The notes beneath the pieces are model-generated. The model ran no database searches. It was not told where the DNA came from and worked only from the letters and a program-made list of their open reading frames with translations. Both the position numbers and the translations under genes were made by a program. A DNA stretch of 64,000 nt from Candidatus Daviesbacteria bacterium (GTDB lineage Bacteria; Patescibacteriota; Microgenomatia; Daviesbacterales; UBA10151): assembly GCA_016198275.1 (NCBI GenBank), contig JACQIX010000038.1, positions 2,340 through 66,339 of the forward strand, given 5' to 3'. Positions 37,991-55,413 of this stretch are shown here, one piece after another; the first letter of the stretch is position 1; each line of letters opens with the position of its first letter.

Positions 37991-38290
37991 CTAAGAAACC
38001 CTTTTGTTTAGTAGATATCTCAAATATTCGTATAGCCTAGAGAAAGAAACGTTATTTTGATTAATGAAGCTCCTCATCGACTCAAGAAGGCTGTTGCTAT
38101 CTAAATGCCTCTGCAGAGTAGTTTTTATATCTTCTGGTATATCTTTAGAGACCTGCACCTCCTCCATTAATTTATCGATCTTGTGATTAGAACTAACCTG
38201 TTCGCCCACGGTAATCAATAACCCTTTCATTAGAAGCTCAAGGCCGTGATAGAAATTGAATTTCCAGAACTTACTCTCCAGCAAACTCAA
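37991..38290 (-). CDS. Small helical protein, HEPN-like (weak)
   Basis: FNFYHGLELLMKGLLITVGEQVSSNHKIDKL resembles the HEPN helix pattern. It starts at a non-ATG codon (TTG). Confidence 0.35.
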   Translation of the reverse strand: MSLLESKFWKFNFYHGLELLMKGLLITVGEQVSSNHKIDKLMEEVQVSKDIPEDIKTTLQRHLDSNSLLESMRSFINQNNVSFSRLYEYLRYLLNKRVS

Positions 38291-38349
38291 GACTTATTAG
38301 CTATAGCTTAATCACCTGATATTTCGGGTAAGGTAGTTGTCCCAAATAT

Positions 38350-39606
38350 TTATTTAATTCTCCAGCGATGGATACGTTTTACCTTAATACTTTCGACACT
38401 CCCTTTCCTAGCCAACGAAATTAAAATATTCCGTGTGCCATCTTTGGATCGAACCATATTATGTTCATCTTTTAAATACTCTAATAACTGAACAATGGTT
38501 ATATCGGGATATCTTGCCAAAACTCCTAAAACCGTACCTGCAAATACTTCTCTCTCAAGGACATATGGAGATCGATTTTTAGCCCTCAAAAGCAAACTAG
38601 TTACTCTTTGAGGGTCTGCTATAAAATTACGTGCATACTCACTATTTCTTCTCATCCAATCTGGATTCATCTGCTGGAATTGATCAATGACAGTTAATAG
38701 ATCTGCTAGTCTAAGTCTTTGATTATCAGTTAAGTCGATTTCTGATTTCACATTGTATCCGAATTTACCTTTTTCTAAATATCCCTGCTTGACTAAGCTT
38801 GCTAATACACCTGAAACGGTAGCCATCTTCTTATGACCTCCCTGTACTACTGAAGCTGTTACTTGTTGTATATCTACTAACTCGCCAGAATGCCGCAACA
38901 TAAAATCATATATTTCTTCTGTTAATTTAACCGATGTTCGATAAGTATTAGGTGTGTTTGCTGGTCTTTCTGAAGATAGCCTAAAAAATGACACTGGAGC
39001 CTCGGATTCGGCAGCATGATATGTAATAACGTTACCTCTTCCAAGTACATCTAAATGTTCACCTATCTGAAAAGGTGCTACTCCTAATGATAGTGCTAGT
39101 TCATAGGTTTTAATCGGAAGTTTCTGGGTTAATAACTCCCAAAAGATGCGAAACCTGTTTAAAGGTGATCTAACTTTATCTCTTAACGTATCTTCCGGCA
39201 CTGGAGAATTATCTGTTTTGAAAAAACTAGACGCTGTAGAACCAAATAGTTGACGGAGTGACACATCTTCATGCCTTTCTAAGAATGATATTAATGCACC
39301 TATGAATGGTTCCCCCACATTTTGCCCATATTCTGTTTTAATATAACCGTAAGTGGATAGGTCTGGGTTTAACACCTCTTTAGCTACCAAGCCAGTAGGC
39401 TCAAGAGAATTTTGAAGGTACTGAAATGGACCATTTACATTCATTCTCCAACTTACATATGACCCCTGAACATCAATAAATAATCTATGCGCACTAGGAC
39501 GATTATAGATCGTATGAGGATCCATAGCTACAAGAAGAACTCCTTTTGCCTCATGATTGCCCACAGATGCTAATAGGTTTCCTATTTCGTTTTCCTGAAA
39601 ACTCAT
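38350..39606 (-). CDS. Hypothetical 418-aa protein, apparently with several winged-helix-like modules
   Basis: This is a long ORF. Segments such as TVSGVLASLVKQGYLEKGKFGY and RNILISLARKGSVESIKV look like wHTH recognition regions. Confidence 0.6.
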   Translation of the reverse strand: MSFQENEIGNLLASVGNHEAKGVLLVAMDPHTIYNRPSAHRLFIDVQGSYVSWRMNVNGPFQYLQNSLEPTGLVAKEVLNPDLSTYGYIKTEYGQNVGEPFIGALISFLERHEDVSLRQLFGSTASSFFKTDNSPVPEDTLRDKVRSPLNRFRIFWELLTQKLPIKTYELALSLGVAPFQIGEHLDVLGRGNVITYHAAESEAPVSFFRLSSERPANTPNTYRTSVKLTEEIYDFMLRHSGELVDIQQVTASVVQGGHKKMATVSGVLASLVKQGYLEKGKFGYNVKSEIDLTDNQRLRLADLLTVIDQFQQMNPDWMRRNSEYARNFIADPQRVTSLLLRAKNRSPYVLEREVFAGTVLGVLARYPDITIVQLLEYLKDEHNMVRSKDGTRNILISLARKGSVESIKVKRIHRWRIK

Positions 39607-39715
39607 AGGGTTAATTATAGCGCAAAAGGATTAAAATATCAAACTATAGGACTTTGCTCCGTAATCCTAGTTTTAATCGAACTAAAGGTTTAACACAAGT
39701 TATTAGGGCTTCTAT

Positions 39716-39997
39716 TTAAAGAGCTACTTTCTTCTCACCTTTTACGTATTGGCTAATCAGCAAGTTAATAAGAGTTTGGTAGGCAATTCTATTTCTTTTA
39801 GCCTTAGCTTTCACTTTAATTAAATCTTCCTTGTTAATCCTTAGAGTAATGCTTTTAGTTCCCTGTAATTCTCTGTAGTTTTTAACAGCTTCCTTAAACA
39901 GAAGTTTAGTATCTTCAAGATTAGAAACACTTTCAAACTCACCCTTTTCTAAAGCATCTTCAATCTCCTGTTCGTACTTATCATGAGTAATCTTCAT
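39716..39997 (-). CDS. brnA: BrnA-type (CopG/RHH-like) antitoxin
   Basis: KSITLRINKEDLIKVKAKAKRNRIAYQTLINLLISQY is the motif. It overlaps the upstream toxin gene by 4 nt. Confidence 0.7.
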   Translation of the reverse strand: MKITHDKYEQEIEDALEKGEFESVSNLEDTKLLFKEAVKNYRELQGTKSITLRINKEDLIKVKAKAKRNRIAYQTLINLLISQYVKGEKKVAL

Positions 39998-40317
39998 CTT
40001 TTCATCCCTCCTTTCAAATATTTTTCTGTTAACACCCTGCTCGGGTAGACAGTCTTAAGAAAGATCACTTTCCTGTTTGAATCTATGACATAAGGCACAG
40101 CATAGGCATATTTATCTCTCTTTATTACCAGTATTCTTTGGTGAGCATATTTTTTATTACTATGCTTTAAATCACCCAGTATCTCTTTTTCTTCAATAGC
40201 AACAATAATATCCTCAAGCCCTATACCTCTGGTTTCTTTTAATAACAAATTTTTCTCTTCAGAAAACTCAATTCTGTAACCTCTATACTTCACATATTCA
40301 TTATACTCTATGTACAT
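39994..40317 (-). CDS. brnT: BrnT-type (DUF497) toxin
   Basis: IEFSEEKNLLLKETRGIGLEDI parallels the BrnT pattern FEWDxxKxxxNxxKHGhxFEEA. The toxin-first order is as in brnTA operons. Confidence 0.6.
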   Translation of the reverse strand: MYIEYNEYVKYRGYRIEFSEEKNLLLKETRGIGLEDIIVAIEEKEILGDLKHSNKKYAHQRILVIKRDKYAYAVPYVIDSNRKVIFLKTVYPSRVLTEKYLKGGMKR

Positions 40318-40867: not shown

Positions 40868-42241
40868 TTAATTATGCAAAGGCATATCAAGAAGCTTTTG
40901 AGTAGCATTATATTTAATATATTTTCCTTCTCTGAGTCCCTTTATCAAACCTATCTTTACCAGCTGTTTAATATCTTTAGCCGCCGTCTGTCTAGAAATA
41001 TTATTAAGAGTAGCATGAGATGTAATTGTTGAGTAAGCATTAGTCTCAGATGCTAAATGATGTATCAAATATCTCTGTCTATCTACAAGATTTATATCTT
41101 TGCTAATAATACTATCTATCTGCTTATTTTCTAAAATTTTCTCATTCACATACTCATTAAAGTCACTCAGAGCCTGCATAATTTTTCTTATATGAAAATC
41201 AAAAAAGTACGTAGCATCATAAAAATCTTGTTCTGAATAGATATAAGCCATTGAGTATTGAATTGGAGCTCGCTTAATTACCAGAGAAATTGGTAAGTAC
41301 ATAAAGGTCCAATACTTTTTCTTTAGGAGATACCAATAAAATAAAGTCCTTGCCAGTCTACCATTTCCATCAACAAAAGGGTGTAAATAACCAATCCAAA
41401 AATGCAAGAAGATGGCTTTAACAATAGGATGTAAAAACTTCTCACTATCTTCATCGTTCGCGAATTCGATCACTCTCCTTATTTCTTCTTTTACAAAATT
41501 CTCATTTGGAGGTATATGCGAAATATACTCCTGACTTCCAATCATACCCTGCACTACAATATTATCTGAATCCTTCCTAAATCTACCTTGCTGCTCCTCT
41601 TTTATTGTTTTCTGGGTTAACATTCTATGCATTTCGAATAATAAGGCTTCAGAAAGAGGTTGACTCTTATAATCTTCATCAATTTTTGCAATAGTATTGT
41701 AATTATTTAGAATCATTTGTTCATCTTTGTTTCTTGGTTCTCTTTTTTCAGTTATCATTTTTTTAGCTGCTTGCCTTGTAGTGTGAGCCCCTTCTAATTG
41801 ACTTGATGCTATTGCTTCCTCCAAAATCCCCCTGGAAATAAACTTTTGTTTGTTAGATTCTGACAACGCCTCCATTGTAGTAAAAATTTGACCACCTGAA
41901 CTAATATCAATTTTATGCAAAAATTCATCTACATAAGGCAGTCTAATCCATCTGAAATAATCCTTCTTTTCTGTTTTAATAGGGGTTGCCCTTGAGACAG
42001 CATTCCGAAACTGCCTAACAAGAAACCATGTCTCCTCTGGAGTTAACCCCTCCGGCATTTGTTTGTATTTCATTTCATCCCAATAGAGATAGCGTGGTTC
42101 ATTTATTACCTGAAGGAACTCAGTGAATTTATTTCCTAAACTTTCAAGTTTTTCAAAAATCTTACTTCTATCTACTCGTCCTAAATCTGGTTTTTCTAAA
42201 AAATAACGCTGTAGTTGATAATTGGTAGTTGTATCTGACAT
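40868..42241 (-). CDS. Fic/DOC family protein with a C-terminal winged helix
   Basis: The Fic motif reads HPFVDGNGRLARTLFYW. The C-terminus reads NISRQTAAKDIKQLVKIGLIKGLREGKYIKY. Confidence 0.85.
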   Translation of the reverse strand: MSDTTTNYQLQRYFLEKPDLGRVDRSKIFEKLESLGNKFTEFLQVINEPRYLYWDEMKYKQMPEGLTPEETWFLVRQFRNAVSRATPIKTEKKDYFRWIRLPYVDEFLHKIDISSGGQIFTTMEALSESNKQKFISRGILEEAIASSQLEGAHTTRQAAKKMITEKREPRNKDEQMILNNYNTIAKIDEDYKSQPLSEALLFEMHRMLTQKTIKEEQQGRFRKDSDNIVVQGMIGSQEYISHIPPNENFVKEEIRRVIEFANDEDSEKFLHPIVKAIFLHFWIGYLHPFVDGNGRLARTLFYWYLLKKKYWTFMYLPISLVIKRAPIQYSMAYIYSEQDFYDATYFFDFHIRKIMQALSDFNEYVNEKILENKQIDSIISKDINLVDRQRYLIHHLASETNAYSTITSHATLNNISRQTAAKDIKQLVKIGLIKGLREGKYIKYNATQKLLDMPLHN

Positions 42242-42320
42242 GTTAAATACATGTTAACTATGTGTTAACACTTAACATGTTAACATCGTGTTAACTATAT
42301 GTCAATATTTAACATATTCG
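42240..42320. promoter_or_regulatory. Array of TGTTAAC (GTTAAC palindrome) repeats directly upstream of the Fic start codon; putative operator
   Basis: TGTTAAC occurs at 42252, 42263, 42278 and 42289, giving spacings of 11, 15 and 11 nt. A TGTTAAA variant lies at the start codon, and inverted TTAACAT copies lie at about 42272 and 42309. Confidence 0.5.
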
Positions 42321-42480
42321 TGCGTACTCTAATTTGCTCCCCCTAGTAAATACGCTTAGAACTTTTGACTACTCACTATTTCAAGGTTACCAGCCACAGT
42401 TTTTACAAGCTTATGCGTAAAAATCAAATTGATGCAAACATATCTGGTAAAATGGCTTGTGATTATTGTAAACTATAATT

Positions 42481-43722
42481 ATGGAAAAAAGTAATGATTT
42501 GAATAATCCTGGAATTGATATACCACAATCTCAACAAGCACAAACGGGCAGTTTACAGCAACCGGTTAATGAAACCTCGCCACGGCCCCCAATCCAACCC
42601 CAATCTAGTAAGAAATGGTTAATACCAGGCTTAATTGGTCTTATTGTATTGTCTTTAAGTTTTGCAGTGTATTTTGCCTATCAAAATATTCAGTTAAAAA
42701 AGCAGTCTAGTTCTATCCAACCAACCCCAACACCATCTTTTTCTCAGGCTCTATCACCCGCGAATAACCCAGTAAGCAAACCAGAATTGAGCAATAAGCT
42801 TATTTCATACACCACAAATGAAGGATTGGTGGTATCCGATATTGATGGAAATAATAAAAAGGTTGTTTTTACAGTAAAAGACCCATATTTTTCTTGGGAT
42901 TGGAACCCTAAAGCTAACGAAGTTGTTGCTAGTAATGCAATTCTAAAAAATCTTGATACTGGAATTGAAAAGAAAGTCCCAGCAGGCAGATGCCACAACT
43001 GGTCTCCAGACGGTAGCAAAATTGCTTATGAAGGTGGAGGTGGGCTTTTCTATATGAACTCTGACGGCACAAATCCTGTCAAAATAACCGATGAAGGTTC
43101 GTTGTGCGGAGGCTCCAATAGTGTATTTCACTGGCTACCTGACAGTAAATCGCTAATATATTTAACTAATAATGGTGCCACATATACTAACGAGGTAGTT
43201 CACTCTATTATGAAATACGATACTAGTAACCGTTCAACAACAAAGATATACCAAGACGAAAAAGGGTCAGGACAAATAAGAACCCCTTCAATTTCCCCAG
43301 ATGGGACAAAGGTGGTATTTATGATGAGTGTTGACAGAGGAAATAATTCAAATCAATTAACCGAAAATGTTTACATTATAAACATAGACGGCTCAGGACT
43401 TACCCAACTTACAAACTTGGAGGCAGAAGGCGAATATGGTCAAGGTATAGGTATGCCCATTTTTAGCACAGATAGTAAAAGCATATTCTTTGTTAGCAAT
43501 AGCACTATAAGCAAATACCAAGGTTTAACAATGTTGGATATTCAAACAAAAACGATTACTCGCCTAGCAAACGAAACAGCAAACGCATACTCTCCCGCGA
43601 CAATTTCGCCTGATGGTAAATATGTCGCATATGATGCCTTTGGTAAAGTCGTAGTAGTTAACTTGGAAACAAAGAATAAAACCCTAATCAATAACGCAGG
43701 ATTTGTGCTGTGGCAAAAATAA
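42481..43722 (+). CDS. Membrane-anchored TolB-like beta-propeller (PD40/WD40-like repeats) protein
   Basis: It has an N-terminal TM segment and repeated SPDG motifs (SPDGSKIAYE, SPDGTKVVFM, SPDGKYVAYD). Confidence 0.7.
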   Translation: MEKSNDLNNPGIDIPQSQQAQTGSLQQPVNETSPRPPIQPQSSKKWLIPGLIGLIVLSLSFAVYFAYQNIQLKKQSSSIQPTPTPSFSQALSPANNPVSKPELSNKLISYTTNEGLVVSDIDGNNKKVVFTVKDPYFSWDWNPKANEVVASNAILKNLDTGIEKKVPAGRCHNWSPDGSKIAYEGGGGLFYMNSDGTNPVKITDEGSLCGGSNSVFHWLPDSKSLIYLTNNGATYTNEVVHSIMKYDTSNRSTTKIYQDEKGSGQIRTPSISPDGTKVVFMMSVDRGNNSNQLTENVYIINIDGSGLTQLTNLEAEGEYGQGIGMPIFSTDSKSIFFVSNSTISKYQGLTMLDIQTKTITRLANETANAYSPATISPDGKYVAYDAFGKVVVVNLETKNKTLINNAGFVLWQK

Positions 43723-44133
43723 TTCTCCAAAAAATAATCTTCTTCAACTTTTTAACTCATATAGGTTACGCCAAAGCAGTATAATTGCATTGGAGCGTAG
43801 TAATGAAAAAAGTAACGAAATTACCACTAGTTGACCCGGATTTATACAAAGTTAGTGATAGCAAGGGTATCACTCTGGGTAAACTGAACCAGTTGCCCCT
43901 GAAGAACGGGTTAAGTTTATTGAACCCATAATTCAAGCAAACAATGAGCAGTTTAGTAAGCTCGCCAATACCATCGCAGAAGTTGCTAACTTCGGTAAAA
44001 CATTTAGCAATCTTGCCACTTCAATTAAATTTCCAATTATTGATATTCTAGACAACTTAAAGCTCCCAGAGTTGCCACAAATACCTGATTTTTATAGCGG
44101 CATTGACACTAAAGCCATTTTTACACTACCAGA

Positions 44134-44651
44134 TTGACTAAACAGCCTCATGGATATATTAATTTAATTAAAAGCTTTGTACCAATTAAAGCTAACCAGT
44201 TGTGGTGTTCGGATTTAAGTTACATTAAGTTCCTGGATAGATTCTGGTACCTAGCAACCATTGAGGATATATTTACCAGACAAATAGTTGGAGTAAATTT
44301 TGGCAAATACCACAACAGTGAGCTGGTTTTGCAAACCGTGAAACAAGCCATTTTAAATACTAAACAAACCCCTGGAACTTTCCACTCTGACCAAGGAACT
44401 GAATTCATGGCTAAAACTTGACAGATTATTTAGAAGAAAAAGGAGCCAAAATATCAGTATCAGACAAAGCCTCACCTTGGCAAAATGGCTACCAGGAATC
44501 ATTTTACTCAGGGTTTAAGTTGGATTTAGGTCCTACCAGTCACATTAAGGAGTTGGGAGAATTGTTTGAGGTGATTGCTAAAACTATGAATTACTACAAC
44601 AACTCAAGAATTCATACTAGCCTGAAAATGAGTCCGGTAGCGTTTAGATAA
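44134..44651 (+). pseudogene. IS3-family transposase (OrfB, rve integrase core) remnant, 5'-truncated and frameshifted
   Basis: NQLWCSDLSYIKF..WYLATIEDIFTRQIVG..FHSDQGTEFMAKT-stop is followed in another frame by TDYLEEKGAKISVSDKASPWQNGYQESF..YNNSRIHTSL. OrfA and the OrfB N-terminus are absent. Confidence 0.8.
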
Positions 44652-44661
44652 GGTAGAGAAT

Positions 44662-44778
44662 ATTTGTTCAAAGAATTGGGTACTTGACATAGAGCAGGGA
44701 AGGAATATTTCAATTAAAACTGCTTATAACATTGCCCATGCTTTAGGAAGAAAATTAAAGGATCTTTTTGATTTCTAA
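44662..44778 (+). pseudogene. XRE-family HTH gene remnant (C-terminal half only)
   Basis: ..LDIEQGRNISIKTAYNIAHALGRKLKDLFDF-stop resembles the C-terminus of the intact XRE at 51814..52038 (IYKIARALDVKVKDIFPF). It abuts the IS3 remnant. Confidence 0.45.
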
Positions 44779-44791
44779 TTTATAAAATATT

Positions 44792-45574
44792 TTAAGTGGT
44801 TTGTTCGCTAAAGACGATAAATTCTTTACCCAATATAGGACAAAGAGAAGAATAAGAATTATCTAAAGTCCACAGTGTACTTCTTCCCATCTGATCAACA
44901 GCAATTACAGCATCTCCAATAGATTTATTGATACTAGGTTTTTCAGAGTTTTTAGTTTCTTTCTGAACCTCTATTAGTCTAGTATGGATTTTTTTAAACC
45001 CTTTATTTTTTAAGTGATTAATACCCTCTTTAGTTAATTTATCTAAATCTTGTTTATGTTTATCCCAGAACCTTTTTAAAGGTATAGTTGGTCTTTCCAT
45101 ATACAACATTAGAAAACCTTCAAAGTCCTCTTTGGAATTTATTCGATACTTCACTATTGGATCGCCACCGAAATCTCCAGTTAGGCTTTTTATATTTGTA
45201 TCAAAATTATCAATTAACCAAATAATTTTTGCTTCTAACTCATCTAAAAAATTGTCTGATCGCTCACTTATCTCATTGCTAAGTTTTAAGATTAAAGAAG
45301 TGACTAATAAAATATTTTTTAATTCTCTAGGTTGAAATTTTTGTGACCATGCAGCATAAGCCCTACTAGGACTACCAGTAATCTTAACTAAATTGTAAAA
45401 ATCAATACAAGATTTTATCAGACTAATCTTAAACTCATATAAAACGAAGTAAGAGGAATAAAGAATTACGTTGCTTTTAGCAAAAGTAAGTGTATAAACC
45501 CAGTCAAAGAAAAATTTAGTTATTTGTACCGATGTTTCGAGGAGAATTTTATTAGGCAAGGATTTATTAGGCAT
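44792..45574 (-). CDS. Hypothetical 260-aa protein, possibly a PIN-like nuclease (weak)
   Basis: It is the third gene of a tight operon. KILLETSVQI near the N-terminus and IGDAVIAVDQ..LWTLD near the C-terminus resemble the first and last PIN acidic motifs. Confidence 0.6.
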   Translation of the reverse strand: MPNKSLPNKILLETSVQITKFFFDWVYTLTFAKSNVILYSSYFVLYEFKISLIKSCIDFYNLVKITGSPSRAYAAWSQKFQPRELKNILLVTSLILKLSNEISERSDNFLDELEAKIIWLIDNFDTNIKSLTGDFGGDPIVKYRINSKEDFEGFLMLYMERPTIPLKRFWDKHKQDLDKLTKEGINHLKNKGFKKIHTRLIEVQKETKNSEKPSINKSIGDAVIAVDQMGRSTLWTLDNSYSSLCPILGKEFIVFSEQTT

Positions 45575-46219
45575 TTATTTGGCTCTTTTTATAGGAGTTA
45601 ATCCTAATCTATATGCTTGTTTAGTGAAGATTTTTACATCACTCAATTTAAATTTCCCTTCATTAAATCTTTTCAACTCTTCATGCAAAGCCTTAACTCT
45701 TCCTAAAGGTATTTCACTCCAAATACTATGATCAAAAATTAACATTAATGTATTTGCTACAACTCTACTGTTTGGGTCAGAAGCGAAGAAGGAATAATTG
45801 CTTGTAAGACTCTCTTTTATACTAGCAATAAAGACTAATGAATCGCTAGTACCAAATTCTACCCATTTTTCAAAGTCAGCAATGACTTTATTTAGAGTTT
45901 CCTTAAGTTTTAGAGTTTGGTAAGGAGAAGAGGGGGTTGACTCTTCTTGTGAAATTAGCATCCTTTCGCTTTCCAAGTCTTTAGTCTGATCTTTACTCGA
46001 CATTATTGGATTCTTAAACTCTACTGGCTTTGTTTCATCTTCAAATGAGAAACGTGGTTCTTGAGGTATGGACTTTCGTAATTCTGTTCCATCAAAATCA
46101 CCCATTAATGAATCAGTTTTATCTTTTTTGAAGGTTGACCTATCTTCTTGATGAGAAGTTCTTAAAAATGGATTAGAAATATTTGTTGCCCAACTATTGG
46201 CGGTAAAAGGTTGCAGCAT
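45575..46219 (-). CDS. Hypothetical 214-aa protein (disordered N-terminal half, helical C-terminal half)
   Basis: It is the middle gene. Its stop abuts the next ATG with a 0-nt gap. Confidence 0.6.
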   Translation of the reverse strand: MLQPFTANSWATNISNPFLRTSHQEDRSTFKKDKTDSLMGDFDGTELRKSIPQEPRFSFEDETKPVEFKNPIMSSKDQTKDLESERMLISQEESTPSSPYQTLKLKETLNKVIADFEKWVEFGTSDSLVFIASIKESLTSNYSFFASDPNSRVVANTLMLIFDHSIWSEIPLGRVKALHEELKRFNEGKFKLSDVKIFTKQAYRLGLTPIKRAK

Positions 46220-46223
46220 ACTG

Positions 46224-46940
46224 TTATTTAAATATATAACTATTATATTCTTTTAAGAGTTTAGTCACTTCCTTATGGGCAGTGGTTAATTTATCTTCTA
46301 CATTCGTAGCAGTTAGATTCTCTACTTCAAAAACGTCTATATCAACATATAAGTTCGCATCAGTCAATTTATCAACATTGTCCTCTTCGGAAAAATTTGC
46401 TTGAAAACGTTTTATTGCCTGTTGTTTATTCACTGGTCCTATTTGTACACGACTCTTTAACCCGTTCTGTTGTTCTGAAACAAGTACAAAAACCGCATCT
46501 TTAATGCTCTCACCTACCAATACTTTTAGCTTCTTATCCTGATTATAGAATTTGTTAAATATAATATCTTTTAACTCATTAAGTTTAAGATTTGTTGACC
46601 ATACTTCGGTAGCCCTAACTCCGATCCTCCCTACTTTTTTCAAGTTGGCTAATTTATTAAGAGATTTAAAAGCCTTTTTTACAATGGTATCAAGTTCTGT
46701 AAAATCCTTCTTGCTCTCATTTAAATAGGTAATTTTATCAGAAGCTATTTGTAAGAACTTTTTCTCCGATGGTGTGTATAACGTTACATCATCACTTTTT
46801 TCTGCAAGCCATTCTTCAAATTTATTTTCGTACTCAGAAGCAGCTTTTGAAGCTATATCAAAAGAAATTAAGTTGGGCCTAAATCTTATTTGCCCAATGA
46901 GTCTTATTAGTACATTATCAACATCTAACATAGTGGTCAT
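46224..46940 (-). CDS. Hypothetical 238-aa protein, TIGR04255-like (recalled resemblance only)
   Basis: It is the first gene of the operon. The N-terminal LIRLIGQIRFRPNL resembles the conserved N-terminus I recall for that family. Confidence 0.6.
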   Translation of the reverse strand: MTTMLDVDNVLIRLIGQIRFRPNLISFDIASKAASEYENKFEEWLAEKSDDVTLYTPSEKKFLQIASDKITYLNESKKDFTELDTIVKKAFKSLNKLANLKKVGRIGVRATEVWSTNLKLNELKDIIFNKFYNQDKKLKVLVGESIKDAVFVLVSEQQNGLKSRVQIGPVNKQQAIKRFQANFSEEDNVDKLTDANLYVDIDVFEVENLTATNVEDKLTTAHKEVTKLLKEYNSYIFK

Positions 46941-47255
46941 TTAAACGAACAGGTTGCGATTATTTTATCAAATTTACATAATAAAAACACCTTTGTGCAT
47001 TAATTTAGTGTAGTAATTTTATATATACTATATTTTAATACTAGATATTAGGTGGAGTTTAAGTTGGATAGTTTATTATAAAGACTTACTACTACCGCCT
47101 CATTCATCAAAAATGAGGCTAAGTTCGAGTAAGAACTATCTAGCTCCCCAATGTTAGCGCACTTAGAAGTTATTTTCTAGAGACGGAGGAAGACTTTGAG
47201 CCCATTTTTATTTAATGGTGACAAAACTTACAAAAATGGTATACGATAAATAACA

Positions 47256-47858
47256 ATGCTAAGTAATTTAAACTGCCTAAAATCTAACGATAGCATAATC
47301 AGAATCGCGCTCATGGAGATACTTAGCAAAGACCATGAAGGCGATCCCGATACAAAAATCATCCCAGAACTCGGTTTAAAACATGGTGAAACTAGGGTGG
47401 ATATTGCAGTAGTTAATGGAGTCATTCATGGTTATGAGCTTAAAAGTGATCTTGATACTCTAATCCGTCTCCCGAATCAGATGAGAATTTATAATTCTGT
47501 TCTTGACCAAGTTACTTTAGTGGTGAGTAAAGATCATCTCCATGAAGCTATTAAGCTCATACCAGATTGGTGGGGAATTATCGTTGCTAAAATGGTCGGG
47601 TCAACTGGAAATATTAAATTCTGCCACATACGTAAACCTGAGGAAAATCACTTTAAAGATAGCTTATCAATTGCTAAGCTTTTATGGAGAGAAGAAGCTC
47701 TAAGTATCCTGGAAAAGTTAAATAAAGCAAATGGGGTGCGTTCCAAATCTAGGCAAATAATCTATGAGAGATTGGCAGCAAATTTAAATCAGGAAATCTT
47801 AGGAAATGAAGTTAGAAAGTGTTTAAAAACTAGGGTAAATTGGAGACCTGTGATATGA
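47256..47858 (+). CDS. PD-(D/E)xK-like protein (resembles the 'sce7726 family')
   Basis: IIPELGLKHGETRVDIAVVNGVIHGYELKSDLDTLIRLPNQ contains a D...ExK arrangement (VDIAVV...YELKS). Its 3' end overlaps the convergent gene by 29 nt. Confidence 0.65.
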   Translation: MLSNLNCLKSNDSIIRIALMEILSKDHEGDPDTKIIPELGLKHGETRVDIAVVNGVIHGYELKSDLDTLIRLPNQMRIYNSVLDQVTLVVSKDHLHEAIKLIPDWWGIIVAKMVGSTGNIKFCHIRKPEENHFKDSLSIAKLLWREEALSILEKLNKANGVRSKSRQIIYERLAANLNQEILGNEVRKCLKTRVNWRPVI

Positions 47859-48933
47859 CACAAGCCAGATGATGATTGATTCCAGCCCTTAGCCAGGTTC
47901 TTGGATTTCCTGTCTCTTTTGTAGTAATATCACTACCGATCCTAGCTATATAAGCATCCCCAAAACTAAAACCTGCACCAAAAAACTCTTTCTGCTCTAA
48001 TAATAAATGAGCCTGAGCGGGATATTGTGCATGGCCTGCACTATTCTCTCCTCTTAAACCCTGGCCCCTCATTATCATCCACTTATCTGGCAAAGTGTAT
48101 CTTATACTTGCACTTGGATTAGATCCTGGAGATGGTTCCAAATAGATAGGATGTTGAATAGTATAGTCACCAAAAGCTGGTTTCCGTAGAAGATCTCCTG
48201 AGTTGATTTGTTCTAACCAGCAGTTCCAATCTGAACGTTCTTTAAAATGCATGTCTACAGTAAATTCCATTAAGTCTTTCGGGAATGTTCCGCTTATAAC
48301 TGTAAAAGTTCTCCAATCAGAAATACTCGGAATTTGTTTTATAAAATCTTTTATCTCTAGACATTTACTGTCTGTTATTTGAAAATCAATTATTAAATCC
48401 ACCTGGTTTGCTAATAATCCCTGGTTTGTGAGAAAACTCTTAACATCATCCCCCAAAGAAGGTTTAAAATCACTTCTAAATAATCGTAGACATATGCCTT
48501 GTTTACTTTTTTGAGCATGTAATGTTGCAACTTTCTTAAGATCATTATCAGATGCTAAGGTAACCACAGGGATTAAATACAGTCCCATATCAATTCCTGT
48601 TGAGAGAATATCTTCCAAACCATTAACTCTAAGAGAGAAATCAATTAGACTTAAGTCTATAAAGATTGGGGCCGTACCCCAAAACTTCAAAATCTCCTCT
48701 GGTATTCCTGGAATTTTACTCTTAAGTTTTTCTATAGATTCATTAAGAAGCTCTTCATGAGTCTTTATAATTTTCACCTCTCCTTCTCCAGTTCTGAATG
48801 CCACGGGTTGGGGCATTATTAATTCAATCAATGGAGTTAGGTACTTCTTTTCTTTATCACTTAACTTTTCCAGCGCCTCTTTCTCAGCAGCTTTCCACCT
48901 TAAAACTGATACATAATGCTTATAATCAAACAT
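47830..48933 (-). CDS. 'Beta protein' family-like protein (resembles the 'sce7725 family')
   Basis: The N-terminus YKHYVSVLRWKAAEKEALEKLSDKEKKYLTPLIELIMPQ matches the YVPxLKxKxGExxAL..PLxE pattern I recall for that family. It is the last gene of the higB operon. Confidence 0.6.
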   Translation of the reverse strand: MFDYKHYVSVLRWKAAEKEALEKLSDKEKKYLTPLIELIMPQPVAFRTGEGEVKIIKTHEELLNESIEKLKSKIPGIPEEILKFWGTAPIFIDLSLIDFSLRVNGLEDILSTGIDMGLYLIPVVTLASDNDLKKVATLHAQKSKQGICLRLFRSDFKPSLGDDVKSFLTNQGLLANQVDLIIDFQITDSKCLEIKDFIKQIPSISDWRTFTVISGTFPKDLMEFTVDMHFKERSDWNCWLEQINSGDLLRKPAFGDYTIQHPIYLEPSPGSNPSASIRYTLPDKWMIMRGQGLRGENSAGHAQYPAQAHLLLEQKEFFGAGFSFGDAYIARIGSDITTKETGNPRTWLRAGINHHLACVISQVSNLP

Positions 48934-48934
48934 A

Positions 48935-50122
48935 TTACTTTTTCTCCTTTACTTCCTGGAAGAGTTTACCTACCTCCCCTTGTCCTAGAAGAGCAATTAA
49001 ATAGGGATATCTATCATTTTCACGCCTCATTCTTCCTGCTACAATCGCTGGGTGAATACCTAACTCTCGAGCTAAACTATGAGCAGCTATAGGGGACGGA
49101 ACTAACCTAGCTGGACTATTTACCCATTTATTCTCTGGAATCAAAGCTTCTCTAGCCTCTTTATCAGCAGCTTCCTCTTCATCGCTGGTAGCATCTTTAT
49201 CATCTAAGTCATCATAAAATAAATCTACAGGATTATTGGAATGTAACTCCATATGAGCTAACTCGTGCATTAAAGTAAACCAAAAATTATCCAATCTGTC
49301 ATACCTAATAGTTAAGCCAATAATTGGACGGTCCTTATTAGTCATAATTGTTACAGCATCTAAATAGGTATTTTGAAAGTGAGGTACTACCACTAAACCG
49401 ATTCCATGTTCTTTCAGAAACTCACAGGCTTGTAAAGGACCTTTAGGATCTAAACTTAATTTAGCTACTTCACGCATAAAGCCTAGATTAACCGAACCCT
49501 TTTTGAATTTAGTAGGATATTCAATCTTATTGGCTTTTTTAACAACAGAGGCTAGCCAAATAGTAAGAGAATATTTATTAACTGGCTTTTTAGAACGATA
49601 ATAAGTTTTGCGTAACATACCTACAAAAGAATCAGGAGCCCCAACTGGACGAAAGAATTCTTCAATAAGTTCTTTAGCACTATAACTTTTTAAATTTTTA
49701 TCCCCGAAATAACCTCTTTTTTCCATCTCCTTTATGGGGTAATTACTCCACTCATCTGGTTTATTCAATAAGACTTTTGCTGGAATATTTAAACCAGACT
49801 CAAGATTTCTTATCATCTCGACGGTTAATGATCTTTTACGAGATAAGACTTCAGATACTCTGCTACTACTTCCAAGATAGGGAACTAAGTCAACAGGTTT
49901 TAGATTCTGTTGTTCCATACGGAACAATATTGCATCAACAGGATCAGGAAGGGATTCAGGAAATGCATTAGATTCATAATCTTTTATTAAAGTAGCAAGA
50001 AGATCTAATTGTTGACCTTCATCAGAGTCTGGATCAGGATCTTTGCTCATTAATTCCTCTACCCAACCAAGGGCTTCTCTGTAATCATCTTCTGTTTTAA
50101 TTGGTCTAATTTTTATATCCAT
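48935..50122 (-). CDS. HigA-like HTH antitoxin fused to an ImmA/IrrE-type zinc metalloprotease domain
   Basis: The N-terminus PIKTEDDYREALGWVEELMSK..LDLLATLIKDYE is HigA-type. The HTH reads LGSSSRVSEVLSRKRSLTVEMIRNLE, and the C-terminal region carries HEXXH (LMHELAHMELH). Confidence 0.7.
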   Translation of the reverse strand: MDIKIRPIKTEDDYREALGWVEELMSKDPDPDSDEGQQLDLLATLIKDYESNAFPESLPDPVDAILFRMEQQNLKPVDLVPYLGSSSRVSEVLSRKRSLTVEMIRNLESGLNIPAKVLLNKPDEWSNYPIKEMEKRGYFGDKNLKSYSAKELIEEFFRPVGAPDSFVGMLRKTYYRSKKPVNKYSLTIWLASVVKKANKIEYPTKFKKGSVNLGFMREVAKLSLDPKGPLQACEFLKEHGIGLVVVPHFQNTYLDAVTIMTNKDRPIIGLTIRYDRLDNFWFTLMHELAHMELHSNNPVDLFYDDLDDKDATSDEEEAADKEAREALIPENKWVNSPARLVPSPIAAHSLARELGIHPAIVAGRMRRENDRYPYLIALLGQGEVGKLFQEVKEKK

Positions 50123-50132
50123 ATATTCCTTT

Positions 50133-50417
50133 CTATTTAATAACCCATTTCATGTATTGACTGTGGGTTCCAACTTCTTTTATCAACACAATTCCATTTT
50201 TATAATTTACTTTTATCCAAAGACGGTAGTTATTCCCTTTTATATTAAAGACAATATTCCCATCTATAATACTTGCGCTGGCATACCGCTGCTTAACATC
50301 CATTGGACTGCTCCATTCTGCTTCTTCCACCTCTGCCAACCAGGAGTTAACCTGTGCACTAGCATCTGAATGCTTAGCTTTAAATTCATCAAGTACTCCT
50401 TTGCCAATAACTTTCAT
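50133..50417 (-). CDS. higB: HigB-family (RelE-like) toxin
   Basis: VFNIKGNNYRLWIKVNYKNGIVLIKEVGTHSQY is the characteristic HigB_toxin C-terminal pattern. Confidence 0.8.
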   Translation of the reverse strand: MKVIGKGVLDEFKAKHSDASAQVNSWLAEVEEAEWSSPMDVKQRYASASIIDGNIVFNIKGNNYRLWIKVNYKNGIVLIKEVGTHSQYMKWVIK

Positions 50418-50555
50418 TTTTTAATGATGTTAGTGATACCCTATAAATCATTACCATCTTGGGAAGATTGTACAGGGTATATCTTTATTTGTCAAGTTTT
50501 GATTTAAGATCCCCTACCTTGAGAAAAAATTATCCCAAGGTTGTAAAATAAAGTT

Positions 50556-50936: not shown

Positions 50937-50946
50937 ATTATAGGAA

Positions 50947-51705: not shown

Positions 51706-51813
51706 ACAATTTAAATCCTAACCTATTGGTTTATAAAAAACAATAATTATTGAAGCTAAATCTTAATATATGAGTTAGTTAATATTTCTATCCAAGATTG
51801 CTAGCGTTAAAGC

Positions 51814-52038
51814 ATGGCAACTAAGAAAGTAACTGAACAAGATTTTAAATTAGGAAGAAAAATCCATAAAATTCGAAAAGAAAAGGGGTTTACCCAAGAA
51901 AAATTAGCAGAGAAGATGGGGGTTTCTACCACTTGGATTGGTTATATTGAAACAGGATATAGAGTCCCAAATTTAAAAATGATTTATAAAATCGCACGAG
52001 CCTTAGATGTAAAAGTTAAAGATATATTCCCCTTCTGA
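51814..52038 (+). CDS. XRE-family HTH transcriptional regulator
   Basis: KIRKEKGFTQEKLAEKMGVSTTWIGYIETGYRVPNLKMIYKIARAL. Confidence 0.8.
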   Translation: MATKKVTEQDFKLGRKIHKIRKEKGFTQEKLAEKMGVSTTWIGYIETGYRVPNLKMIYKIARALDVKVKDIFPF

Positions 52039-52129
52039 AGCTAAATTTCCTTTATCAATAGGCTTTACCTATAAAAACCCTTCTAGAAAGTTACTCTAGA
52101 AATATAGGGTATTTTTAATCCCTAAATTT

Positions 52130-52408
52130 TTGACTATGAAGGATAAAGAAGTTTTCGAGACAAAGGATAAACAGCTTGTACCGTTTCTGCTAACACAGCA
52201 GGATATTAGCTTCATTGGTACTAAACTAATTGGTTCCCTACTGTACTTTCAATTCACCCCTTTAGATAAATGCCATCAGTTAATAGTTGATTTTGCCACT
52301 AGAAAAGCTCCACTAGTCCAACCAAAGGACATATTAGAAGCAGTTGAAACATTTAGGGATATGGTTTTTGAGATGAAGGAGAAAAACAGAGGATATGGCA
52401 AACCGTAG
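52130..52408 (+). CDS. Hypothetical 92-aa protein (DUF5659-like, weak)
   Basis: This small ORF sits in the phage-like module. LVPFLLTQQDISFIGTK..LYFQF resembles that family as I recall it. Confidence 0.45.
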   Translation: MTMKDKEVFETKDKQLVPFLLTQQDISFIGTKLIGSLLYFQFTPLDKCHQLIVDFATRKAPLVQPKDILEAVETFRDMVFEMKEKNRGYGKP

Positions 52409-53117
52409 AATGCTTCATAAGTCAATTTCAATTAATCTCCAGGTTAATTCTTTAAGTGAATTTGCACAGCTTATTTTTACTTGGACAATACCCCACTTAG
52501 ATGATTTTGGAAAGATTGAGGGTGAGACTGAAGTTATTAAAGCTTTAGTTAAACCTATGAGTGGTAGATCAATTGATGACTTTGAAGCTGCCCTTAACGA
52601 GATAGTTCAAGCTGGGCTAATAGAAAGATACATTGTTGATGGTAAAAAGATTATCTGCTTTCCCACTTTTGATAAGCATCAGACGGGGTTAACTAGGAGA
52701 ACCGAAAGTAGATATCCTGATAATCCTGCAAAACATTCAGAGAATTTCAATGAAAATCAAATAAGTTCTCCACTAACTGAACAGAACCTAACAGAAGATA
52801 AATTAAGAGAATCTAACCAAAAAAGAAGTAAAGAAGAAGTGAAGCGAAGCGAACGTAATACTGATTCTGGTAGGGATAAGGATGTAAATCCAGTTAGTTT
52901 TTTCCCATCCAATGACGGTGAAGAATTAGCTCTTACTACATGGAGAGAATTCGCTCCTGATAATCCAGAACTTTTTGGTTCTCTTTTTCTTAAAGCCTTA
53001 AGGCAAGGATTATCTGTTTTAGATTATAGAAAGATTGCCACTGACTCAGCGAGAACTAGTGATCCAATCTCGAGCTTTATCAAGAAAGTTGATGAATTTC
53101 TAAATCTTCCCTTCTAA
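52395..53117 (+). CDS. Phage-type replication-initiator-like protein (weak)
   Basis: The N-terminus RRMLHKSISINLQVNSLSEFAQLIFTWTIPHLDDFGKIEG parallels the RRMISKDI...DDDGF pattern of phage replication-associated proteins I recall. Confidence 0.45.
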   Translation: MANRRMLHKSISINLQVNSLSEFAQLIFTWTIPHLDDFGKIEGETEVIKALVKPMSGRSIDDFEAALNEIVQAGLIERYIVDGKKIICFPTFDKHQTGLTRRTESRYPDNPAKHSENFNENQISSPLTEQNLTEDKLRESNQKRSKEEVKRSERNTDSGRDKDVNPVSFFPSNDGEELALTTWREFAPDNPELFGSLFLKALRQGLSVLDYRKIATDSARTSDPISSFIKKVDEFLNLPF

Positions 53118-53121
53118 ATCT

Positions 53122-53349
53122 ATGTATATACTTACTTCGGCATCTGCTTTCAAACTCCAAAAGATTCTTAGTAAAAGATTAGGTCGAGAATTAGATGAGG
53201 AGGAACTAAACCAAGCCCACGAGGCTCTAATGGGATTTGCAGAAGCTCTAATGGATTTAGAGCCTTCAGAAAATAAACCTATTACTAATAACCACACTAT
53301 TAAGAAATCAAAACAATCTATTGAAAATAATAAATATGTTACTGTATAG
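53122..53349 (+). CDS. Hypothetical 75-aa protein
   Basis: The ORF lies in the phage-like module. No motif was recognised. Confidence 0.4.
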   Translation: MYILTSASAFKLQKILSKRLGRELDEEELNQAHEALMGFAEALMDLEPSENKPITNNHTIKKSKQSIENNKYVTV

Positions 53350-53368
53350 TGTTGATAGAGGTTCAAAT

Positions 53369-53548
53369 ATGAAAAAAGGGTTAGTAACTGTTAAAAAGGC
53401 AGCAGAAATAATGGGAGTTAGTGTTCAAACTGTTATTAGATGGGATAAAAAGGGGAAATTAAAAGCTACAAGGCACCCAATGAATAATTATCGTTTATAT
53501 AGATTAGTTGATCTTCAAACCATTGCAAAGAAAGTAGGAGAAGAATGA
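53369..53548 (+). CDS. Excisionase/MerR-type HTH DNA-binding protein
   Basis: VTVKKAAEIMGVSVQTVIRWDKKGKLKATR is the motif. Its stop overlaps the recombinase start by 4 nt. Confidence 0.65.
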   Translation: MKKGLVTVKKAAEIMGVSVQTVIRWDKKGKLKATRHPMNNYRLYRLVDLQTIAKKVGEE

Positions 53549-55125
53549 ACGATATTACAGTTCTAACTTATGAGAGGGTTTCAACAGAAGATCAAACAGT
53601 CACTAAATCTTGTGATGACCAGAAAACTGTTAATGATAGGTTTATTGCTTCTCAAGGCTGGAAAGTGGCAGAAAACGGTGATTATAGGGATGAGGGTATA
53701 TCTGGTTCAACTATAGATAGACCAGGAGTACAAGACATACTAATAAGATGTGGTGAGGACAAAACCATTAAAGCTATCGTTGTAACTGAATCAGATAGAA
53801 TAGCCAGAGGTAATTTAGCATATTTATTCATCAGAGAGGCACTTAAAAAGTATGGAGTAAAGATTGTGGCTGTCACCCAACCAATGATTGATGATAGTGA
53901 TGAAGGTGAAATGATTGGTGAGATTATGGGTGCTGTTAATGGGTTCTTAGGAAAAATAACTAGGCGTAAATCTATGAGAGCCCTAGATGAGAAAGCAGCT
54001 AGAGGTTGGTGGCCTGGGAAAGCCCCCATAGGCTACAAAAACGTCAATATTGGTACAGAAGAGAAGCCTGATAGGATTATTGAAGTTGATGAAGATTTTG
54101 CTCCTTACGTTCGCCAAATTCCCTCTTGGTATAATCAGGGCTATTCCTACCAAGATATTGCTGACAAACTTCATGGACAAGGATTAATAGGAAAGTTAAA
54201 TGGGAAGGTATCTCCTGAAGAGGTTAGAAAGATTATTTTCAATGATTTTTATTTAGGGGAGTTTTTGTGGAGAGGTAAAAAATATAAGGCAAATCATCCC
54301 CCACTCTTGAGATACTTAGAAGTCCATAAAGCACGTAGTAGATCCAAAGAAAAAGGACATACTCATAGCACAAAAGAATTAAAAGACAAATTTCCTTATA
54401 AGAAACTAGATTTTTATTGCTTTGATTGCAAGGACTTAAGAATTACAGCAGAATCTAAAACTAAACACTACCCACGTACTAATAGAACTGTTGAATATAC
54501 CTTTTATCACTGTACTAAATCTAAAGGTGGGTGGTCTAAGTGCACTCAGCCTAGTATTAATAAGGAAGATCTCATTGTACAACTGGCACAAAAAGTAGTA
54601 CTTCCAATCGAGGTTGACGAAGAATTGGCTGAATTTATATTTGAAGAAATGAACAATCAATATACTCATAATAAGGAGGAACAGGCGCAATTCTCACATT
54701 CGATTAATAGACGTTTGGGACAAATAGATATAGAGCTTCAAAATCTTATGGAAATGCGTATAGCAGGTAAAATCCTGCCAATTGGCAATAAAACCCCTGA
54801 TGAAGTTTATGAAGAATATGTAGGCAAAAAGGAATTTGAAAGAAAAAACTTATTATCTACTAAGTTAAAACTGGAAAATAATAGTCTTGAATGGCGTAAA
54901 AAAGCTTCGAACTTCCTTACGGATTGTCAGGATGCCACAAACAAATTTCTAAAAGCTGAGGATGAGAAAAAAGTTAAATTTTTAAGGCGTATAACTTCGA
55001 ACCTATTTTTAAACAACAAAGAGCTTGTTGTGACGCACCAATTTCCCTTTAGCTACCTCCTAAAAGAAGGCAGCCATCCTTCTGTGCTCCCCCGCGTGGA
55101 TTCGAACCACGAACCTCGATCTTAA
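53545..55125 (+). CDS. Large serine recombinase
   Basis: The N-terminal resolvase domain reads LTYERVSTEDQ with the catalytic Ser. A recombinase domain, a Cys-rich zinc ribbon (CFDC..CTKSKGGWSKC) and a coiled coil follow. The last 13 codons are read off the antisense of tRNA-Asn. Confidence 0.85.
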   Translation: MNDITVLTYERVSTEDQTVTKSCDDQKTVNDRFIASQGWKVAENGDYRDEGISGSTIDRPGVQDILIRCGEDKTIKAIVVTESDRIARGNLAYLFIREALKKYGVKIVAVTQPMIDDSDEGEMIGEIMGAVNGFLGKITRRKSMRALDEKAARGWWPGKAPIGYKNVNIGTEEKPDRIIEVDEDFAPYVRQIPSWYNQGYSYQDIADKLHGQGLIGKLNGKVSPEEVRKIIFNDFYLGEFLWRGKKYKANHPPLLRYLEVHKARSRSKEKGHTHSTKELKDKFPYKKLDFYCFDCKDLRITAESKTKHYPRTNRTVEYTFYHCTKSKGGWSKCTQPSINKEDLIVQLAQKVVLPIEVDEELAEFIFEEMNNQYTHNKEEQAQFSHSINRRLGQIDIELQNLMEMRIAGKILPIGNKTPDEVYEEYVGKKEFERKNLLSTKLKLENNSLEWRKKASNFLTDCQDATNKFLKAEDEKKVKFLRRITSNLFLNNKELVVTHQFPFSYLLKEGSHPSVLPRVDSNHEPRS

Positions 55126-55158
55126 CAGGATCTCGCTCTACCGTTGAGCTACAGGGGA
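55087..55158 (-). tRNA. tRNA-Asn, anticodon GUU
   Basis: TCCCCTG-TA-GCTC-AACGGTA-GAGC-G-AGATC-CTGTTAA-GATCG-AGGTT-CGTGG-TTCGAAT-CCACG-CGGGGGA-G. Confidence 0.85.
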
Positions 55159-55404: not shown

Positions 55405-55413
55405 ATTTAATCC

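Follow-up and report, generated by a model that had tools for sequence, protein, structure and literature searches.

A large serine recombinase element with its attP inside the recombinase gene at the 3′ end of tRNA-Asn in a Daviesbacteria chromosome

What does a serine recombinase located beside a tRNA gene mobilise, and is the accessory block that ends at this gene one genomic island or several? The question arises from a 64,000-nucleotide stretch of a Candidatus Daviesbacteria genome (contig JACQIX010000038.1, assembly GCA_016198275.1), referred to below as the window. Positions 37991–55158 of the window, ending at tRNA-Asn, were described in an initial annotation as a 17 kb accessory island beside a large serine recombinase (LSR), formed by successive insertions of related elements. 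The idea of successive insertions is supported by the data presented here; a single island is not, since the LSR mobilises only 47143–55092. Very probably, the block arose by stacked insertions at the 3′ end of tRNA-Asn in the chromosome and consists of an intact LSR element (E1) with the attachment site attP within the LSR gene, an LSR-less remnant (E2) and older residents, namely Fic, BrnT/BrnA (BrnTA) and a pair of HEPN-like and winged helix-turn-helix (wHTH) proteins. In the analysis, 42 related genome loci were compared (designated by L numbers; DnaG 63–76% identical to that of the window), gene calls were checked by HMM search against Pfam, PADLOC, PHROG and NCBIfam, and RNA genes were examined with ARAGORN and Rfam. 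DnaG, RpoD and their neighbours assign the window to Candidatus Daviesbacteria, within the Microgenomates, and one protein of the island is a 100% match to HY384_04200 of a Daviesbacteria metagenome-assembled genome.

E1 is an intact LSR element at the extreme 3′ end of tRNA-Asn, and it is the only intact unit of the stack, adjoining the tRNA gene. The features that define it are the following.
47143-55092: E1, the LSR element, 7,943 bp as a circle
47143..47149: attL core GCTCCCC, direct repeat of 55086-55092
55086-55092: attR core GCTCCCC (plus strand), last 7 nt of the tRNA-Asn gene sequence
47100..47142, minus strand: displaced native flank of tRNA-Asn (attB′ side), tagataGTTCTTACTCGAACTTAGCCtcattttt…, matching the tRNA-Asn 3′ flank of relatives
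55086..55158, minus strand: tRNA-Asn(GTT), intron-less (ARAGORN; Rfam 61 bits; alignment with relatives)
53545..55125, plus strand: LSR, open reading frame (ORF) of 526 aa in the integrated form (Pfam Resolvase and Recombinase, PHROG integrase)
47150..47215, plus strand: P arm of attP, that is, the detached last 21 LSR codons and stop (NVSALRSYFLETEEDFEPIFI, then the stop), colinear with the circular contig L069 and with L070

The boundary of E1 was detected only by probing with the tRNA-downstream flank of relatives. Positions 47117–47136 are a 20/20 match to the sequence directly 3′ of tRNA-Asn in L017, with similar matches in L028 and L030 and none expected by chance. In these three loci the flank reads …GGGGGAGCCA-ggta-GTTCTTACTCGAACTTAGCC…, and in the window its copy is preceded, in the tRNA orientation, by GGGGAGC. 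Because the flank of the relatives sits at 47117–47136 with GGGGAGC before it, E1 is bounded by a 7-bp direct repeat. This heptamer occurs four times in the 64 kb window, three times at the junctions. The second copy of the tRNA 3′ end that the initial annotation had failed to find thus exists, but it is of 7 bp only (47143–47149); a long one (29 nt, up to 3 mismatches) was not found in the window, and generic repeat finding returned chance-level pairs only. An end of E1 at ~50.5 kb, considered by analogy with L042, was rejected given attL at 47143, and the L041/L006 flank, GTGGCACTTAATATACC, is not found where it would be expected and probably belongs to another element type. The sequence at 47100..47142 is treated as the native attB′ arm rather than the P′ arm of an older element, because no LSR C-terminus is encoded there (by eye) and tblastn with the window LSR finds no LSR gene beside this flank in any locus.

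Further evidence comes from joining the ends. A sequence running from 55085 through the core into 47150 gives one continuous alignment (361 nt, 68%) to L069 5863–6222 across the junction, whereas the alignment of attR by itself ends at the junction and that of attL begins there. L069 is a 9,480-nt contig carrying the LSR homologue P0009, and its exact 30-nt terminal overlap identifies it as a 9,450-bp circle. Contiguous attP is thus seen in circular L069, contiguous attB-type sequence in L017 and L030, where tRNA-Asn is directly followed by the flank, and hybrid junctions on both sides of E1. The predicted attP is …CATCCTTCTGT GCTCCCC AATGTTAGCGCACTTAG… and the predicted attB is …GGTTCGAATCCACGCG GGGGAGC TAGATAGTTCTTACTCGAAC…; the predicted attP junction would read …GAAGGCAGCCATCCTTCTGTGCTCCCCAATGTTAGCGCACTTAGAAGTTATTTTC… and the predicted empty attB, in the tRNA orientation, …GGTTCGAATCCACGCGGGGGAGCTAGATAGTTCTTACTCGAACTTAGCCTC…. 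The motif CTAAG-N12-GG[GA]GAGC was found at six sites in 971 kb (window and loci), each distal to a tRNA-Asn 3′ end, with a chance expectation roughly estimated at ~0.2. With regard to the att-site architecture of LSRs, the T-arm TTCGAA and an inverted TTCGAG in the flank are symmetric about the core end, and the P-arm motif lies 5 bp further out; little weight is given to this arrangement.

In the proposed mechanism, E1 is an integrative episome-like element of 7,943 bp with LSR, MerR-type Xis-like, Rep-like and XRE proteins and cargo. The LSR would recombine attP, in the 3′ end of its own gene, with attB, composed of the T-arm and acceptor end of tRNA-Asn and ~25 nt downstream. The 7-bp core GGGGAGC common to both sites comprises five bases of the acceptor stem, the discriminator base and the leading C of CCA. 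On integration, tRNA-Asn would stay intact, apart from encoded CCA (CCA is absent from the gene in the window, …GGGGGAGC being followed by aca). Integration would carry the last 21 LSR codons 7.9 kb away, and because of this displacement the integrated LSR gene would end in antisense-tRNA codons. E2, outside E1, keeps an attP-arm relic and contains an XRE gene disrupted by an IS3-type element.

The recombinase itself was identified by matches to PF00239 (Resolvase; 1.4e-22, residues 7–154), PF07508 (Recombinase; 3.1e-11) and the PHROG 95 integrase (5.4e-57, residues 4–497). It contains the motif YERVSTEDQ, and Ser13 is invariant across a 44-sequence alignment. The zinc ribbon PF13408 was recorded for distant homologues only, with no match in the window LSR; in the family alignment Cys292 and Cys322 are invariant and Cys332 nearly so, and in the AlphaFold2 model of P0009 beta-hairpins flank the long helices at 358–443. 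Homologues are 55–72% identical, and exact-protein look-ups gave no match to the LSR or to RpoD.

The element-encoded part of the LSR ends at 55085. The ORF extends 40 nt into tRNA-Asn, and its final 13 codons are tRNA sequence read in antisense (the core followed by …RVDSNHEPRS and the stop). The 21-codon tail is contiguous with the LSR ORF only in the circularised element; attP lies within the LSR gene, and integration swaps the last 21 codons for antisense-tRNA codons. A stop before the core is present in none of these LSR ORFs: the integrated ones enter the antisense strand of the tRNA, in a frame that differs between elements, and the circular-state ones run on for 21 codons. The C-termini of LSR homologues are of two sorts, antisense-tRNA tails in most (…LPRVDSNHEP and similar) and the predicted attP-form tail in P0009 and P0021, which end in the very peptide (…NVSALRSYFLETEEDFEPIFI) that was predicted for a window LSR frame continuing through the core and on from 47150. 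The tail is conserved at the peptide level. It is kept as a peptide in E1, L041, L073, L069 and L070, the stop position is the same in four of the five, dN/dS is 0.08–0.6 in all ten pairs, and the DNA motif within it changes synonymously (CTTAG, CTTCG, CTCCG). AlphaFold predicts a helix for the tail with moderate confidence (pLDDT 65–75), the LSR fold being otherwise confident (pLDDT 87).

It is tentatively proposed that serine integrases throughout the Microgenomates evolved an attP in their own 3′ coding region aimed at the tRNA-Asn acceptor end, that the acidic, helical tail of 21 residues is made only from the excised circle, and that the swap senses the integration state, biasing the enzyme towards integration or excision. 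The swap would then have a regulatory effect. A competing explanation, to be held just as tentatively, is that the conservation of the P arm reflects constraint on a DNA-binding site only, the LSR ending at the first stop and the tail peptide being meaningless. Conserved DNA is indeed expected of attP half-sites, and the CTTAG motif stands at a fixed 12 nt from the core in six sites. Yet conservation of the P arm reaches ~60 nt beyond the core, which exceeds a typical attP half-site, and the motif varies synonymously (AGA to CGA, CTT to CTC) with Leu-Arg kept; the shared stop and the dN/dS values below 1 also speak for a peptide.

The remaining part of E1 is occupied by cargo and backbone genes.
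47256..47858, plus strand: sce7726 / phage P4 cII-like gene (NCBIfam NF033832 7.8e-49; PADLOC 'cll'; PF26915), convergent with PD-lambda-2 C
47830..50417, minus strand: PD-lambda-2 operon, three contiguous co-oriented genes (PADLOC, Pfam)
47830-48933, minus strand: PD-lambda-2 C, Beta_protein (PADLOC 7e-42; Pfam Beta_protein)
48935-50122, minus strand: PD-lambda-2 B, Xre-type helix-turn-helix (HTH) and M78 (ImmA/IrrE) peptidase (PADLOC 7.4e-140; Pfam Peptidase_M78)
50133-50417, minus strand: PD-lambda-2 A, HigB-like (PADLOC 1e-37; Pfam HigB_toxin 5.6e-25)
50556-50936, plus strand: 126-aa protein, cargo or accessory gene of E1, its terminase-small-type match confined to the N-terminal HTH (profile positions 1-51 of 141)
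50947-51705, minus strand: unknown 252-aa protein (u252), cargo or accessory gene of E1
51814..52038, plus strand: XRE-type regulator of E1 (Pfam HTH_3 5.9e-16)
52130..53349, plus strand: backbone genes u92, Rep-like u240 (52395-53117) and u75 (PHROG replication initiation protein 9e-13 for u240)
53321..53548, plus strand: MerR/HTH_17 excisionase-like gene (Pfam), overlapping the LSR start by 4 nt

HigB and the uncharacterised operon beside it, which the initial annotation had listed separately, together form PD-lambda-2 according to PADLOC. E1 thus carries a complete PD-lambda-2 anti-phage system, its function being predicted from gene content. PD-lambda-2 is a three-gene abortive-infection (Abi) system first found in E. 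coli, and protection against phage is known for the E. coli system only (PMC9519451). The E1 copy shares with it the same three genes in the same order, with strong PADLOC matches; it differs in residing in a genome of the candidate phyla radiation (CPR), as cargo of an LSR element and convergent with a P4 cII-like gene, and its activity is predicted. For u252, no match was found in PHROGs, PADLOC or NCBIfam. The excisionase-like protein has partners, 62–70% identical, upstream of the LSR in L042, L069 and L070, and it is a candidate directionality factor or regulator. As for the block that had been called phage-like, no capsid, portal, large terminase or tail gene was found among the ORFs of E1 (Pfam, PHROGs), and the elements closely related to it are small, either circular or integrated, and are not phages.

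One such relative is L069, which shares u92, the Rep-like protein, u75, the Xis-like protein and the LSR with E1 at 35–70% identity (35% for u92, 43% for u240 and 56% for u75) and carries different cargo, without structural genes in PHROGs. Integrated copies with both ends mapped are L042 (5.46 kb) and L073 (10.1 kb). An LSR gene adjoins tRNA-Asn in many of the related species, and the order LSR, tRNA-Asn, rpoD-dnaG is found in other Microgenomates, in L163 and L164, where the core is GCGGAGC and tracks the tRNA acceptor stem. The LSR family targets tRNA-Asn across the Microgenomates. Type I restriction-modification or other cargo occupies the same place in relatives, just downstream of the LSR in the circle. 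Scans of viral contigs with the LSR, the attP junction and a family profile returned no close relative (IMG/VR LSR identity at most 32%), and no conjugation gene was recognised in E1 or L069. The family was named integrative episome-like elements because E1 and L069 have no phage structural or conjugation gene and IMG/VR holds no close LSR. It is also worth noting that L069 contains, at 7335–7390, ~1.1 kb downstream of the LSR stop, a second P-arm-like copy (79% over 57 nt to the P arm of the window from ~47154), which hints at past recombination or fusion between elements.

Next to E1 lies E2.
42367..47099: E2, LSR-less remnant (4.8 kb, 42336-47099 including the relic)
42336..42366, minus strand: attL-type relic, TTCTAAG-N12 then GGGGAGC, at the outer end of E2
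42481-43722, plus strand: PD40 beta-propeller protein (Pfam 2.7e-13)
44134-44651, plus strand: two rve fragments, IS3-type remnant (9e-14 and 2e-11)
~44641-44778, plus strand: truncated XRE C-terminus
44792-46940, minus strand: operon u260-u214-u238

The relic has the same P-arm spacing as E1, L042, L041, L028 and L011, and it encodes a tail-like peptide, LVNTLRTF…; the successive insertion of related elements is thus documented by two attP-arm relics of the same CTAAG-N12-GGGGAGC architecture. Comparable LSR-less units are L041 and L028. The XRE gene of E2 was truncated by the IS3 remnant. The initial annotation regarded the C-termini of this XRE protein (44778) and of the E1 regulator (52038) as paralogous: the truncated one is real, but the identity of ~44% is ordinary family-level similarity of HTH_3 proteins. 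Within the decayed element, the operon u260-u214-u238 is orphan cargo. Its three proteins gave no above-threshold Pfam match and none in PHROGs, PADLOC or NCBIfam, and u238 has only three homologues (39–100% identity) in 5.8 billion proteins.

Beyond E2 are the outer residents.
40868..42311, minus strand: Fic/SoFic (Pfam 8.7e-18; SoFic 4.6e-42 in PADLOC)
39716..40317, minus strand: BrnT/BrnA toxin-antitoxin pair with a conserved TTGACA-17-TATAAT-type promoter
37991..39606, minus strand: 418-aa weak wHTH protein and 99-aa weak HEPN-like protein, island edge (sub-threshold Pfam)

The calls of Fic, the beta-propeller protein, the IS3 remnant, HigB, XRE, the excisionase-like and replication-like proteins and the serine recombinase in the initial annotation are all supported by HMM searches. 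For BrnT/BrnA, support comes from PF04365, matched by five of the six BrnT homologues; BrnA is below the Pfam cut-off, BrnT has no direct Pfam match, and a sequence search of the PDB with BrnT (single sequence and profile) was negative. Of the HEPN-like and multi-wHTH pair, the genes stand, and the domain matches are sub-threshold (HEPN E 6e-4, under the Pfam cut-off; for the 418-aa protein MarR only), with no PHROGs, PADLOC or NCBIfam match for either protein. This pair is an older resident of the hot spot. Fic and BrnTA also look like long-standing residents and not recent cargo, because a homologue of each lies directly after tRNA-Asn and its flank in another species: Fic (56%) in L017, and BrnTA (72–75%), with the same promoter, in L030. 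Their identity to these other-species copies approaches the core-gene level. Immediately upstream of Fic is a 37-nt tandem repeat (42238–42311) in which ACATGTTAAC-like motifs abound, and an analogous repeated TGCACATGTAT motif precedes the Fic homologue of L017; judged from sequence, it is probably an operator array. Between BrnT and Fic, 40318–40867 is a gene-free stretch of 550 nt with GC-rich hairpin-like segments and no Rfam match. It contains, inverted, the 12-mer ACTTAATATACC, which directly follows tRNA-Asn in six other species, and it may be the scar of a third, badly decayed element. A third P-arm relic considered at 40850–40874 is 80% identical to the E2 arm and has no core; it was set aside as too weak to claim. 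In L011 (12917–17500), a BrnTA-flank-core-P-arm unit is inverted relative to rpoD, and a 16-nt fragment of the tRNA 3′ end is found near a distantly related LSR (32% identity), which suggests that an LSR or another process inverted DNA at the hot spot.

The accessory character of the whole block is confirmed by its composition and by comparison with other species. Both tetranucleotide distance and GC deviate from the core: the distance to the core profile is 0.23–0.27 in sequence windows located within 36–56 kb, as compared with 0.149 ± 0.018 (maximum 0.188) in the core, and GC is 0.34–0.35 in the island and 0.37–0.39 in the core. Composition at 24–34 kb is core-like. In L009, tRNA-Asn is 2.4 kb away from the gene homologous to that of the 681-aa membrane protein (68% identity), in contrast to 17.2 kb in the window, so the outer limits given by the initial annotation are reasonable. 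The backbone in related species consists of dnaG, rpoD, tRNA-Asn, a variable stretch and then homologues of window genes from 24.8 down to 17 kb; the variable stretch is 2.4–8 kb in six species as compared with 30 kb in the window. One more feature belongs here.
24792-37990: housekeeping-type genes MsrA, ZnuABC, Nudix, YggT, histidine phosphatase and the 681-aa membrane protein, native-looking composition
These 13 kb are missing in six related species between tRNA-Asn and a block of CTP-transferase, PAP2 and thioredoxin-reductase-like genes, so that the region variable at the species level is ~30 kb and not 17 kb. Some genes of 24.8–37.9 kb are found at the same locus in other species.

How do other explanations fare with these data? 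That the whole of 37991–55158 is a single genomic island mobilised by the LSR is scarcely credible. In its favour, a single LSR stands at the end next to the tRNA, the composition deviates evenly throughout 36–56 kb, and in L009 only 2.4 kb separate the same flanks, but attL with the displaced tRNA flank is located at 47143, the circular relative is of 9.45 kb and colinear with the 47150/55085 junction, and Fic and BrnTA are found beside tRNA-Asn in species without this LSR. It is improbable, too, that E1 is a phage satellite similar to PICI, hijacking a helper phage via its terminase-small-like protein. E1 is small and has an integrase, XRE, Rep, P4-related genes (cII-like, Beta) and the 126-aa protein with an N-terminal match to Terminase_2/PHROG-51, and L042 also contains a small HTH protein of terminase small subunit style (by eye). 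However, the terminase match is to HTH only, spanning 51 of the 141 positions of the profile, and the 126-aa protein lacks a conserved counterpart in L069, L042 and L073. PHROGs revealed neither capsid nor portal nor redirecting genes, and the LSR has no close relative in IMG/VR. E1 has the integrase, regulator and replication module expected of a PICI/P4-like satellite, and packaging redirection would depend on one non-conserved, HTH-only match. The view that E1 is an immobilised relic, long integrated, which has ceased to excise and persists on account of its defence cargo, appears rather doubtful, though less so than the satellite. It agrees with the finding of integrated junctions only, in five contigs from several samples, and with the in-place decay of such elements seen in E2, L041 and L028. 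However, the backbone ORFs and both att arms of E1 are all intact, an open frame persists through the 21 detached codons and stops where it does in the family, and the LSR retains the invariant catalytic and Cys residues of the family.

Several observations also weigh against the preferred explanation, a stack of insertions with intact E1 next to the tRNA. The dyad symmetry of attP is weak, and the case for a functional tail peptide consists of ~20 codons and a moderate-confidence helix. Among the checks that had been suggested, an empty site was found at the species level (L017 and L030, with L009 shorter) and none for the same strain; no excised circle of E1 was found, and five of five Logan contigs from related samples show integrated attL. 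Since the same-strain empty site and the E1 circle were not found, we can only infer that this copy excises at present. A metagenome scan with the GDSL protein revealed no same-species relative and no synteny. At the tRNA-proximal end of E2 a recognisable core is absent, and the order native flank, E2, P-arm relic, with the native flank on the tRNA side of E2, misfits simple insertion at the tRNA.

The tRNA-Asn gene was affected by other insertions as well. Directly 5′ of it, at 55138–55458 on the minus strand, is an ORF for a GIY-YIG nuclease, whose last codons are the first 21 nt of the tRNA. The ORF is preceded by a partial second copy of the tRNA-Asn 5′ end (~55410–55455) with a hairpin inserted in the D-loop region, and a 15-nt direct repeat, GAGCTACAGGGGAAT, is located at 55146–55160 and 55439–55453. 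The same adjacency of GIY-YIG and tRNA-Asn occurs in L006 (18334–18678, 80% identity). The GIY-YIG unit looks like a separate mobile insertion that duplicated the 5′ part of the tRNA. In many Daviesbacteria and other Microgenomates relatives, a group I intron is present in the anticodon loop of tRNA-Asn, and because of it ARAGORN misses these genes. Intron positions are 13357–13638 in L007, 14148–14389 in L009, 11249–11533 in L024, 13066–13248 in L028 (these four above the gathering threshold of RF00028) and ~11.6–11.9 kb in L164; in L009 a LAGLIDADG-like ORF (13421–14125, by eye) lies upstream of the intron core. The window has a group I intron elsewhere, at 14834–15038 on the minus strand (Rfam 80.6 bits). 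DnaG of L163 (12244–14643) is seemingly split or interrupted, with weak intein/LAGLIDADG Pfam matches, and this primase possibly holds an intein.

If E1 is compared with known systems, it resembles the LSR elements of Bxb1, phiC31 and A118 in the resolvase and recombinase architecture, with a possible zinc-ribbon/coiled-coil region, the integrase gene at one end, the short att core and the small upstream gene that may encode a directionality factor. Unlike them, it targets the 3′ end of a tRNA gene, has attP within the integrase ORF, resides in a CPR host and belongs to episome-like units of 8–10 kb without recognised phage or conjugation genes. The attachment site of Myxococcus phage Mx8 (intP/attP) is also inside the integrase gene. 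According to PMC7192596, serine integrases are 'not known for targeting tRNA genes', with 14 of 297 predicted to do so and none proven; the rule that tRNA genes are integration hot spots, on which the initial annotation relied, applies mainly to tyrosine integrases. In archaea, SSV-type 'suicidal' tyrosine integrases have attP within int, so that integration alters the product, and this was reported to be exclusive to archaea (PMC8371274). The E1 recombinase gene product is likewise changed by integration, but the likeness does not go beyond the principle: SSV-type integration splits and inactivates the gene of a tyrosine recombinase, whereas the serine recombinase of E1 exchanges its last 21 residues and keeps all domains. 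With tRNA-linked defence islands (E. coli hot spots, pipolins) the block shares defence and toxin-antitoxin genes and decayed remnants beside a tRNA site; its relics, in contrast, are attP arms of serine integrases and not tRNA 3′-end direct repeats of tyrosine integrases. Integrative LSR elements and tRNA-linked defence islands are already known. New are the tRNA-Asn 3′-end target of a serine recombinase, attP in the ORF with a conserved detachable tail, the CPR host and the precise definition of the family. No description of this element family, nor of attP within the gene of a serine integrase, was found in the literature searched.

Mobile elements of CPR/Patescibacteria are poorly charted. 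Here, LSR, attP, attB and a candidate directionality factor are defined by sequence and could serve as a genetic tool for organisms without any. With these elements, the use of a tRNA gene by serine integrases, regarded as unproven in the 2020 survey, gains further cases with good bioinformatic support, and attP within the ORF gives a testable hypothesis of a serine integrase that senses its own integration state. If true, the swap would give the archaeal 'attP-in-int' principle a counterpart among bacterial serine recombinases, in elements ferrying defence systems between CPR bacteria. The PD-lambda-2 Abi system, known from E. coli, travels on LSR elements in ultra-small bacteria, and a 'defence island' can therefore grow by their stacking and decay.

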